Positions 30,252 through 32,039 of a stretch of DNA of 47,495 nucleotides are shown here, one piece after another; position 1 is the stretch's first letter, and every line of letters begins with the position of its first letter. Both the position numbers and the translations under genes were made by a program. Source of the stretch: Vulcanimicrobiota bacterium (GTDB lineage Bacteria > Vulcanimicrobiota > Vulcanimicrobiia > Vulcanimicrobiales > Vulcanimicrobiaceae); contig PLCF01000040.1 in NCBI GenBank assembly GCA_003135555.1, positions 16,101-63,595 on the forward strand. Reading direction: 5' to 3'. Below the pieces are notes generated by a model. That model saw only the letters and a program-made list of their open reading frames with translations, was not told the DNA's origin and made no database searches.

Positions 30252-30680
30252 ATGACCGAAGACGTGATCGCGGCGCGCGCCCGCGCGCTCGCCGGGGCGC
30301 TCACGGAGGCCGGCTTTGCCCGCCTGCGTGTCCGCGACGGGGACACGGAGATCGAGCTGCGGCGGGCGCCGGGGGCGGTCTCCGGGGCCGCGCCTTCGCC
30401 TTCGTCCGCTCCCGCGGCCGCAGCGGCGGAGGTAGCGGATCGGCCGCCGGAGCGCCGCGTAGAGGTCGTCGCCAGCGACGTCGTCGGGATCGTGCGGTTG
30501 CTGCGCCCGGCCATCGGGGAGGGGCAGGAGCTCGACGGCGACCGCGAGCTGGCCTACGTCGAGACCCTCGGGATCCGCAACCCCGTGCGCTCGCGCGGAG
30601 GCGGCCGCGTCAGCACCGTTTTCGTGAGTGAGGGCCAGCCCGTCGAATACGGCCAGCCCCTGTTCGCCATAGATAGATAA
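30252..30680 (+). CDS. BCCP (AccB)-like protein lacking the biotinyl-lysine
   Basis: AccB architecture (N-terminal domain, Ala/Pro linker, ...GQPVEYGQPLF) directly upstream of accC. EAMKM is replaced by ETLGI and the protein contains no Lys. Confidence 0.88.
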   Translation: MTEDVIAARARALAGALTEAGFARLRVRDGDTEIELRRAPGAVSGAAPSPSSAPAAAAAEVADRPPERRVEVVASDVVGIVRLLRPAIGEGQELDGDRELAYVETLGIRNPVRSRGGGRVSTVFVSEGQPVEYGQPLFAIDR

Positions 30681-30683
30681 CCC

Positions 30684-32039
30684 GTGTTTAAAAAAGTCTT
30701 GATCGCGAATCGGGGCGAGATCGCGTTGCGCATCAACCGCGCGTGTCACGAGCTGGGCGTGGCGACGGTGGCGATCTTCTCCGAGGCGGATCGGCAGTCG
30801 CTGCACGTTCGGCATGCCGACGAGGCCTTTTGCGTGGGCCCCGGACCGGTGATGCGCTCGTACCTCAACATCCCCAACATCATCTCGGCGGCGCTGATCA
30901 GCGGCTGCGACGCGATCCATCCGGGCTACGGTTTTCTGGCCGAGAACGCGCGCTTCGCCGAGATCGCGTCCGACCACGGGCTCACCTTCATCGGGCCGAC
31001 CCCCGCGGTGATCAGCGCCATGGGCGACAAGGCCACGGCGAAGCGCTTGATGGCCGAAGCCGGCGTCCCGACGACCCCGGGCAGCGACATCGTCGCGAAC
31101 GTCGACGAGGCGCGAACGGTGAGCGCCGCGATCGGTTATCCGGTGCTGCTCAAAGCCACGGCCGGCGGCGGCGGCAAGGGGATGCGTGCGGTCCACGCGC
31201 CCGAGGAGTTGGCGACGGCGTTTGCGACCGCGCAAGCCGAATCCGAAGCGTCCTTCAAAGACGGCCGCTTGTACGTCGAGAAGCTCATCGTCAACCCGCG
31301 CCACATCGAGGTCCAGGTGCTCGCCGACGAGCACGGCGGGGTCGTGCACTTGGGCGAACGCGATTGCTCGTTGCAGAAACCGTCGCACCAAAAGCTCATC
31401 GAAGAGGCGCCTGCGCCCCATCTCGACGACGCGCTGCGCGAACGCCTGCACACGATTGCGACCACGGCGACGCGTGCGGTCGGCTACACCAATGCGGGGA
31501 CGCTCGAGTTCCTCGTCACCGGCGGTGACCTCTATTTCATGGAGATGAACACCCGCATCCAGGTCGAGCATCCCGTGACCGAGCTCATCTACGGCGTCGA
31601 CCTCGTCAAGGAGCAGATCCGCATCGCCGCGGGCGAGGCGTTAGGGTTCACGCAGGACGATCTCAACACGCACGGGCACGCAATCGAGGTGCGCGTGAAC
31701 GCCGAAGATCCGAACAACAACTTCGCTCCGGCGGCCGGGACGTTGACCACCGTCGTCTTCCCCGGCGGACCCGGGGTTCGCGTCGACACGCACGTCTACG
31801 GAGGCGCCACCGTGCCGCCGTTCTACGATTCGATGCTGGCGAAGATCGTGGCGGTCGGGCGGACGCGCGAGTCGGCGATCGTGCGCATGGAGCGCGCGCT
31901 CGCCGAGACGCGCATCGAAGGGGTCAAGACCACGGTCGATTTCTGCGCCGACGTCCTCGCCGACCCGGAGTTTCGCGCCGGCGGGGTCGGGGTCGCGTGG
32001 CTACCCGCGTTTCTCGCGCGACGGACCGCCGCAGTCTAG
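30684..32039 (+). CDS. accC: Biotin carboxylase
   Basis: Motifs KKVLIANRGEIA, HPGYGFLAEN, GGGGKGMR, ERDCS, EMNTRIQVEH and YDSMLAK. Confidence 0.97.
   Translation: MFKKVLIANRGEIALRINRACHELGVATVAIFSEADRQSLHVRHADEAFCVGPGPVMRSYLNIPNIISAALISGCDAIHPGYGFLAENARFAEIASDHGLTFIGPTPAVISAMGDKATAKRLMAEAGVPTTPGSDIVANVDEARTVSAAIGYPVLLKATAGGGGKGMRAVHAPEELATAFATAQAESEASFKDGRLYVEKLIVNPRHIEVQVLADEHGGVVHLGERDCSLQKPSHQKLIEEAPAPHLDDALRERLHTIATTATRAVGYTNAGTLEFLVTGGDLYFMEMNTRIQVEHPVTELIYGVDLVKEQIRIAAGEALGFTQDDLNTHGHAIEVRVNAEDPNNNFAPAAGTLTTVVFPGGPGVRVDTHVYGGATVPPFYDSMLAKIVAVGRTRESAIVRMERALAETRIEGVKTTVDFCADVLADPEFRAGGVGVAWLPAFLARRTAAV

Follow-up and report, generated by a model that had tools for sequence, protein, structure and literature searches.

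A lysine-less paralogue of the biotin carboxyl carrier protein, encoded beside accC in a peat bacterium of the phylum Eremiobacterota and predicted to dock on AccC

In this work we analysed a stretch of 47,495 nucleotides (hereafter the window) of contig PLCF01000040.1 (positions 16,101 to 63,595; assembly GCA_003135555.1) from a peat bacterium of the phylum Eremiobacterota (Vulcanimicrobiota in GTDB). Directly upstream of accC, which encodes biotin carboxylase (BC), the window carries a gene for a paralogue of the biotin carboxyl carrier protein (BCCP) in which glycine stands in the place of the biotinyl-lysine. This paralogue is a real and selected protein and a probable bacterial analogue of the BADC proteins of plant plastids, and co-folding predicts that it binds AccC.

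A first-pass annotation made from the letters of the sequence had described a protein of BCCP architecture with a Gly codon at 30570-30572 and no lysine, whose gene ends 3 nt before accC, with nusB next in the row; all of this was confirmed from the DNA and its open reading frames (ORFs). The 142-residue translation ends ...GQPVEYGQPLFAIDR and its lysine count is 0; since it has no lysine, the protein can be neither biotinylated nor lipoylated and cannot shuttle CO2. The hairpin motif reads ETLGI, with Gly107 replacing the biotinyl-lysine of E-[AS]-M-K-[ML]. Over positions 9-141, a profile of the family aligned with the E. coli BCCP chain of the known BC-BCCP structure (4hr7_B; E 2.2e-19), and this alignment sets the Gly of the paralogue on the K of EAMKMMN. 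The thumb loop, measured from the VG strand to the next conserved Gly, has 11 residues in the paralogue versus 16 in E. coli BCCP and in the genome's own BCCP, a gap of 5 residues. The Pfam Biotin_lipoyl model gave 27.0 bits, barely above its cut-off of 22.1, and the NCBIfam BCCP model TIGR00531 gave 41.4 bits, under its cut-off of 115.2. The paralogue is thus a protein of BCCP architecture that lies outside the curated BCCP family by its lysine column, its thumb and its score.

The first-pass annotation had also stressed that the whole protein is free of lysine. The count stands, while its weight does not: the neighbouring genes have 2.2% Lys, the true BCCP of the genome has only 2 Lys, and zero Lys in 142 residues is only mildly unusual (P ~0.04). 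Total absence of lysine was therefore rejected as a strong signal by itself, and it is the lysine column that matters.

The two folded parts of the protein both resemble those of true carriers. According to the AlphaFold2 model, the N-terminal domain (pLDDT 63-80 per 10-residue block) has an alpha/beta/beta form, and in sequence this region aligns with those of E. coli BCCP and of the genome's own BCCP. A preprint on the E. coli acetyl-CoA carboxylase (ACC) filament (PMC11160672) predicts the same form for residues 1-30 of E. coli BCCP and models them as oligomerising at the centre of the filament. The best solved matches of the C-terminal domain were 1bdo (TM 0.81 on the target) and the P. 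horikoshii BCCP (TM 0.89), further ones being 4hr7 and Arabidopsis BCCP1, and all of them are BCCP biotinyl domains. Eight of the nine columns that are invariant in the family alignment lie in this C-terminal domain.

Sequencing or assembly error was considered as a source of the glycine and rejected. Public peat metagenome contigs from runs of two other studies span the gene with 0 differences, and in contigs of close strain variants the codon of Gly107 is GGC, which still encodes Gly. A pseudogene was rejected as well, given the low ratios of nonsynonymous to synonymous substitution (dN/dS) in the folded domains and the strain differences listed within the ORF, of which 34 out of 34 are synonymous and 32 fall on third codon positions. 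Gly was found at the lysine column in all of the 120 nearest database homologues, 91 of which are without any Lys and 29 of which have one. These homologues are labelled accB, BCCP, "biotin/lipoyl-binding protein" or hypothetical, and are placed in Candidatus Eremiobacterota / Candidatus Elarobacter.

The dN/dS ratios were calculated by the Nei-Gojobori method for 22 orthologues of the paralogue from the genus (231 pairs) and compared with those of the true BCCP and accC. In the paralogue they were 0.17 for the N-terminal domain, 0.69 for the linker, 0.21 for the C-terminal domain and 0.27 for the whole gene; the corresponding values for the true BCCP were 0.11, 0.60, 0.28 and 0.32, and the whole accC gene gave 0.13. 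Judged by these ratios, the paralogue is under purifying constraint of the same kind as the working carrier. Both folded domains are conserved, and both are therefore presumably in use. The linker changes readily in both length and sequence, consistent with its dN/dS of 0.69: at 30376-30448, contigs from runs X4 and X6 have 65 other letters replacing 71 bases, and the flanking domains are alike.

To follow the lysine column through the relatives of the host, 40 related genomes were searched together with the window's own (41 genomes in total), and the accC-linked copy was read in 39 loci. One of the genomes, G036, is unpublished; it enters the whole-genome tallies, its locus is not among the 39 read and no statement at the level of residues uses it. 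An ORF similar to accC lies immediately 3' of the paralogue in 39 of the 39 loci. The column of the accC-linked copy is occupied by Gly in 24/24 loci of the genus (ETLGI) and in 5/5 loci of the second family of the order (EALGI), that is, in 29/29 loci of the order. In the sister family of the class, f3, the accC-linked copy has Lys in seven loci (EALKL or EALKV) and Arg in three (EALRL). The first-pass annotation had named an MKM motif at this locus in relatives as a finding that would speak against it and point to a sequencing error or a one-off decay. This is not what we see: copies from the order have Gly and those from f3 have Lys or Arg, and the independent contigs, the 120 homologues with Gly and the purifying selection speak against error or isolated decay. 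As an additional feature, the Lys/Arg-type copies of f3 (L049-L058) have a C-terminal extension of ~30 residues with a conserved ...EPPR[LIM] end (alignment columns 180-211), which the Gly-type copies are without.

The family alignment was also used as a profile against 1.84 billion representative proteins, and the best 150 were tallied by the residue at the lysine column. Among these best 150 we counted K in 68, G in 44, R in 27, A in 3, S in 3, T in 2 and H, D and Q in one each. A FastTree phylogeny was built from the 139 of the 150 with coverage of the profile; resting on short alignments, it serves as a guide only. It places the window's protein in a Gly clade of 38 tips (support 0.855), the sister of which is a clade of 14 tips with interspersed Lys and Arg (support 0.999; joint support 0.979). 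Because the f3 copies keep Lys or Arg, and in view of this tree, the paralogue beside accC appears to predate the loss of lysine. As far as these sequences tell, lysine gave way to Gly on one occasion and to Arg on several, and such repeated loss in one paralogue suggests a role that does not depend on biotin. The thumbless loop has a wider distribution: it is found in nearly all of the Lys-less proteins and also in 33 of the 68 Lys-bearing proteins among the best 150. Stand-alone BCCPs that keep the lysine and have no thumb are thus common and may be the pool that gave rise to the Lys-less copies.

The true carrier of the host is encoded at another place in its genome, as the first-pass annotation had expected. 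In the window's genome (84% complete), a canonical BCCP of 156 aa with the motif CILEAMKLMNE was found on contig C21, away from accC; with TIGR00531 it scores 114.5 bits (cut-off 115.2). The paralogue is 32% identical to it, and their N-terminal domains align well. A canonical BCCP was detected in 39/41 genomes (E <= 1e-10), with the motif EAMK[LM]MNE read in 37 of them; the two genomes without a hit at this threshold are G017 (72% complete) and G028 (90% complete). The accC gene of the window encodes the sole stand-alone BC of the genome. Contig C81 encodes a further BC as a fusion with a carrier domain, beside a carboxyltransferase, genes of the accD/accA type for carboxyltransferase are located on C56, and birA is present.

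The biotin synthase gene bioB (TIGR00433) was above the cut-off in only 7/41 genomes, and neither the window's genome (84% complete) nor the single-contig genome G020 (99% complete) yielded it. Many of these bacteria may therefore be dependent on external biotin. Without G036 the tallies are 38/40 genomes for the canonical BCCP and 7/40 for bioB. A strict link between the loss of bioB and the loss of lysine was considered and rejected, since bioB is patchy in Gly-type and Lys/Arg-type families alike.

Outside the phylum we scanned species-representative genomes with the Arg-type alignment. As the GQPVEYGQ motif is shared with ordinary BCCPs, the scan returned mostly canonical loci: 72 of the 80 were ordinary BCCPs, and 69 had accC on the locus, mostly directly downstream. 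The eight Lys-less loci belong to Armatimonadota (four loci, with R, R, R and T at the column) and to Ktedonobacteraceae (four loci, all with N). A search of the whole genomes of three Armatimonadota and two Ktedonobacteraceae showed that each combines a single Lys-less copy with a Lys-bearing BCCP at another place, and each of the two Ktedonobacteraceae genomes has two Lys-bearing ORFs of the carrier type. In 2/3 of the Armatimonadota genomes searched, it is the Lys-less copy that has accC nearby. These copies are like the window's paralogue in being conserved BCCPs without the lysine that accompany a Lys-bearing carrier encoded elsewhere; they differ from it in the substituting residues (R, T, N) and in belonging to other clades of the tree than the Gly type of the window.

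Docking of the paralogue on AccC was studied by co-folding, with AccC and the paralogue each given its own alignment and with three controls. The pair scored 0.78 and the best of the three controls 0.00; the mark used is reached by 116/157 solved complexes and 2/215 mismatched pairs, a calibration that is only rough for own alignments. At least 63% of the contacts were common to the runs, and the pLDDT of the partner was at least 69. The predicted interface comprises V77-I80, T105, L106, I108, P130 and E132-Q135 on the side of the paralogue and E34, F49-P53, S59, P64-A69, L71, I72 and H98 on the side of AccC. Among the predicted contacts are V78, G79, L106 and G134, i.e., four of the nine invariant columns of the family. 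The model supports a contact between the C-terminal domain of the paralogue and AccC.

The coordinates of the paralogue, its parts and the neighbouring genes are collected in Table 1. The stop codon of the paralogue (TAA, 30678-30680) is followed by ccc and then by the GTG of accC, and its start codon is fixed by the orthologues, all of which begin MTEDVIA... In the window, folK is found 3.6 kb before the paralogue as the last of a series of folate-pathway genes, of Mur-ligase type, pterin-binding (FolP) type, FolB and 6-hydroxymethyl-dihydropterin pyrophosphokinase (HPPK), and is separated from the paralogue by two minus-strand genes (27266-30146), an epimerase/DUF1731 gene and the gene of GAF + HD-GYP type. 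In the sister family within the order (L044-L048) the HPPK ORF ends right before the paralogue, and the minus-strand genes look like a local insertion or rearrangement in the window's genus. In six representatives of 293-315 aa (P0132, P0139, P0142, P0145, P0147 and P0160, with source records from NCBI, JGI, ENA and Logan) an N-terminal HPPK (FolK) is fused to a Gly-type Lys-less BCCP-like domain. A scan of 29900-32700 revealed no sigma-70-like promoter, which is uninformative for this phylum, and the only terminator-like site in this interval is inside accC and is no more than expected by chance.

Table 1. Positions in the window of the paralogue, its parts and the genes around it
Feature	Position	Strand	Basis
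Lys-free BCCP paralogue gene, 142 aa	30252..30680 incl. stop	+	ORF list
N-terminal domain, residues 1-40	30252..30371	+	helix 3-19, strands 22-27 and 34-38 (AlphaFold2 model)
Ala/Pro-rich linker, residues 41-68	30372..30455	+	predicted flexible, pLDDT <50 at 44-63
C-terminal biotinyl-type beta-sandwich without thumb, residues 69-142	30456..30677	+	pLDDT 93-98
Codon GGG for Gly107, biotinyl-lysine column	30570..30572	+	DNA read and profile alignment to 4hr7_B
accC, biotin carboxylase, 451 aa, GTG start	30684..32039	+	TIGR00514 645.7 bits, cut-off 626.5
nusB	32043..32468	+	Pfam NusB 116.7 bits
folK (HPPK), last of the folate gene row	26164..26628	+	Pfam HPPK 134.4 bits
Divergent gene of GAF + HD-GYP type upstream (context)	28233..30146	-	Pfam HD_5 114.1 bits, GAF 52.6 bits

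What might such a protein do? The account that we hold, on balance, to be the likelier one is that of a pseudo-carrier, synthesised alongside AccC, that binds to AccC and associates with holo-BCCP as a placeholder or scaffold. The paralogue would be produced together with AccC, as the gap of 3 nt and the adjacency to accC in all 39 loci suggest; its C-terminal domain would dock on the N-terminal domain of AccC, and its N-terminal domain may co-assemble with holo-BCCP. AccC would then leave the ribosome already paired with a placeholder or scaffold in a fixed ratio, and a placeholder of this kind could set the number of real carriers per carboxylase. In view of the coupling of the gene to accC we tend, if only tentatively, to a constitutive role, structural or stoichiometric, as scaffold or placeholder, over that of an inhibitor or brake that can be switched. 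The earlier interpretation of the protein as a structural or inhibitory subunit of ACC has thus gained the carrier encoded elsewhere, the selection and a modelled contact with AccC; binding in the cell, and the choice between structure and inhibition, we infer.

Several observations weigh against this account. In G022, a genome of the genus that is 88% complete, only the canonical BCCP and no copy of the paralogue was found. In G003 (L043), which is 65% complete and has 10 contigs, the reading frame of the paralogue is broken, with residues 1-69 in frame with accC and residues 50-142 in another frame, owing either to a frameshift or to an indel of the assembly. Nor are all Lys-less copies linked to accC: the Asn-type copies of Ktedonobacteraceae (L070, L084, L087 and L136; ESLNVLNEV) have no accC within 3 kb, and in one Armatimonadota genome too the Lys-less copy lies away from accC. 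No RNA runs were listed as containing the paralogue stretch. The pass in co-folding may echo the E. coli BC-BCCP structure already solved (4HR7) and shows likeness to such a complex and not binding of this copy, and the residues of the predicted interface are conserved in ordinary BCCPs too, for structural reasons. Finally, the effect of plant BADC on activity is itself disputed, since it is presented as an inhibitor or as "glue" (PMC11926652, PMC10440990).

An opposite function can be derived from the same predicted docking through the hairpin and the neighbouring strands. A dummy carrier that fills the carrier site of AccC, and that cannot be carboxylated as it has 0 Lys, could act as a competitive inhibitor and lower the synthesis of malonyl-CoA, i.e., as a brake and not as a scaffold, and a model of this type was the first to be put forward for plant BADC (PMC10440990). 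We consider such a brake unlikely: held in a fixed ratio to its target by a pair of genes spaced by 3 nt, it would have no evident regulation, the paralogue is retained in every relative read, and reconstitution work reported for plants (PMC11926652) favours a role in assembly. It is less probable still that the protein regulates expression, its N-terminal domain repressing the operon as E. coli AccB 1-68 does with accBC while the carrier domain stays passive. The N-terminal domain is indeed the most conserved part (dN/dS 0.17) and resembles that of the true BCCP, and residues 1-68 of E. coli AccB are reported to suffice for repression of accBC (PMC11160672). A repressor acting through its N-terminal domain has no need of the C-terminal domain, however, and the latter is nearly as conserved (dN/dS 0.21; 8/9 invariant columns); that no promoter-like site was found upstream is weak evidence in the same direction.

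Partners other than AccC can also be imagined, e.g., the acyl-CoA carboxylase of the genome with fused BC and BCCP, since a BC fused to a carrier domain is encoded on C81 beside a carboxyltransferase, or a process linked to folate synthesis, in view of the six HPPK (FolK) fusions to the Lys-less domain and of folK abutting the gene in relatives. We find this improbable to a high degree, as accC is adjacent in 39/39 loci read, the adjacency of folK is interrupted in the window by two genes on the opposite strand, and fusions could arise by the mere loss of a stop codon between neighbours. That leaves the reading of the gene as a decaying relic of an ancestral accB, kept so that ribosomes reach accC, or as an assembly error. 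The paralogue does occupy the classical position of accB, and its 41.4 bits are far under the BCCP cut-off of 115.2. Yet the dN/dS of its folded parts (0.17-0.21) is like that of the true BCCP, the strain differences are synonymous in 34/34 cases, Gly is present in 29/29 loci of the order and in the 120/120 nearest homologues, and the contigs from two other studies are identical. We give this reading hardly any credence, and at the level of sequence it appears refuted.

Small non-catalytic proteins that modulate a biotin-dependent carboxylase include the epsilon subunits AccE/PccE of actinobacterial acyl-CoA carboxylases; these have an unrelated fold, bind on the carboxyltransferase side and are not homologues of the carrier. 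With AccB/BCCP of the E. coli type (TIGR00531; 1BDO, 4HR7) the paralogue shares the architecture of three parts, the fold, the position before accC, the conserved VG, the hairpin and the GQPVEYGQPLF C-terminus; unlike it, the paralogue has no lysine, a deletion of 5 residues at the thumb and the much lower score given above.

The closest parallel is with the plant plastid proteins BADC1-3, the biotin attachment domain-containing proteins of heteromeric ACCase, which are likewise BCCP homologues without the biotinylation site that coexist with a working BCCP. In three papers (PMC11926652, PMC10440990, PMC12706156), BADC1-3 are seen as non-catalytic subunits bound to BC and BCCP; a like placement of the paralogue is suggested by its sequence and the co-folding model. 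The paralogue differs from BADC in being bacterial, linked to accC in an operon and probably coupled to it in translation, and in having no thumb loop. One paper of 2025 calls BADC "unique to the plant htACCase" in its abstract (PMC11926652). Given the series of Lys, Arg and Gly within one class, the paralogue is most likely an independent bacterial invention; it is the sister family f3, still with Lys or Arg at the column, that argues for this origin. A full-text literature search, with subscription journals mostly outside its coverage, returned no description of bacterial Lys-less BCCPs.

Acetyl-CoA carboxylase catalyses the committed step of fatty-acid synthesis and is a target of antibiotics and herbicides; its bacterial form is taught as an enzyme of four proteins. 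To our knowledge, plant plastids are the only setting from which non-biotinylated homologues of the carrier are described, and there it is still disputed whether they act as brake or as glue. As a tentative and rather doubtful extension of our findings, it can be hypothesized that in several soil phyla (Eremiobacterota, Armatimonadota and Chloroflexota lineages) heteromeric ACC includes a constitutive fifth subunit, namely a pseudo-BCCP without thumb; it would associate with AccC as it is made, occupy sites of the carrier and form mixed oligomers with holo-BCCP. If this were true, the enzyme would run on fewer biotinylated carriers per complex, an economy of importance to lineages that are mostly without biotin synthase, and control of the first step of fatty-acid synthesis by a "dummy carrier" would have been invented repeatedly in bacteria and would no longer be peculiar to plants. 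A bacterial counterpart, if small, operon-linked and easily expressed, would offer a simple system for studying the effect of a dummy carrier on BC-BCCP assembly. The routine annotation of Lys-less genes as accB would be corrected, and metabolic reconstructions of abundant uncultured bacteria of peat and soil would be affected.

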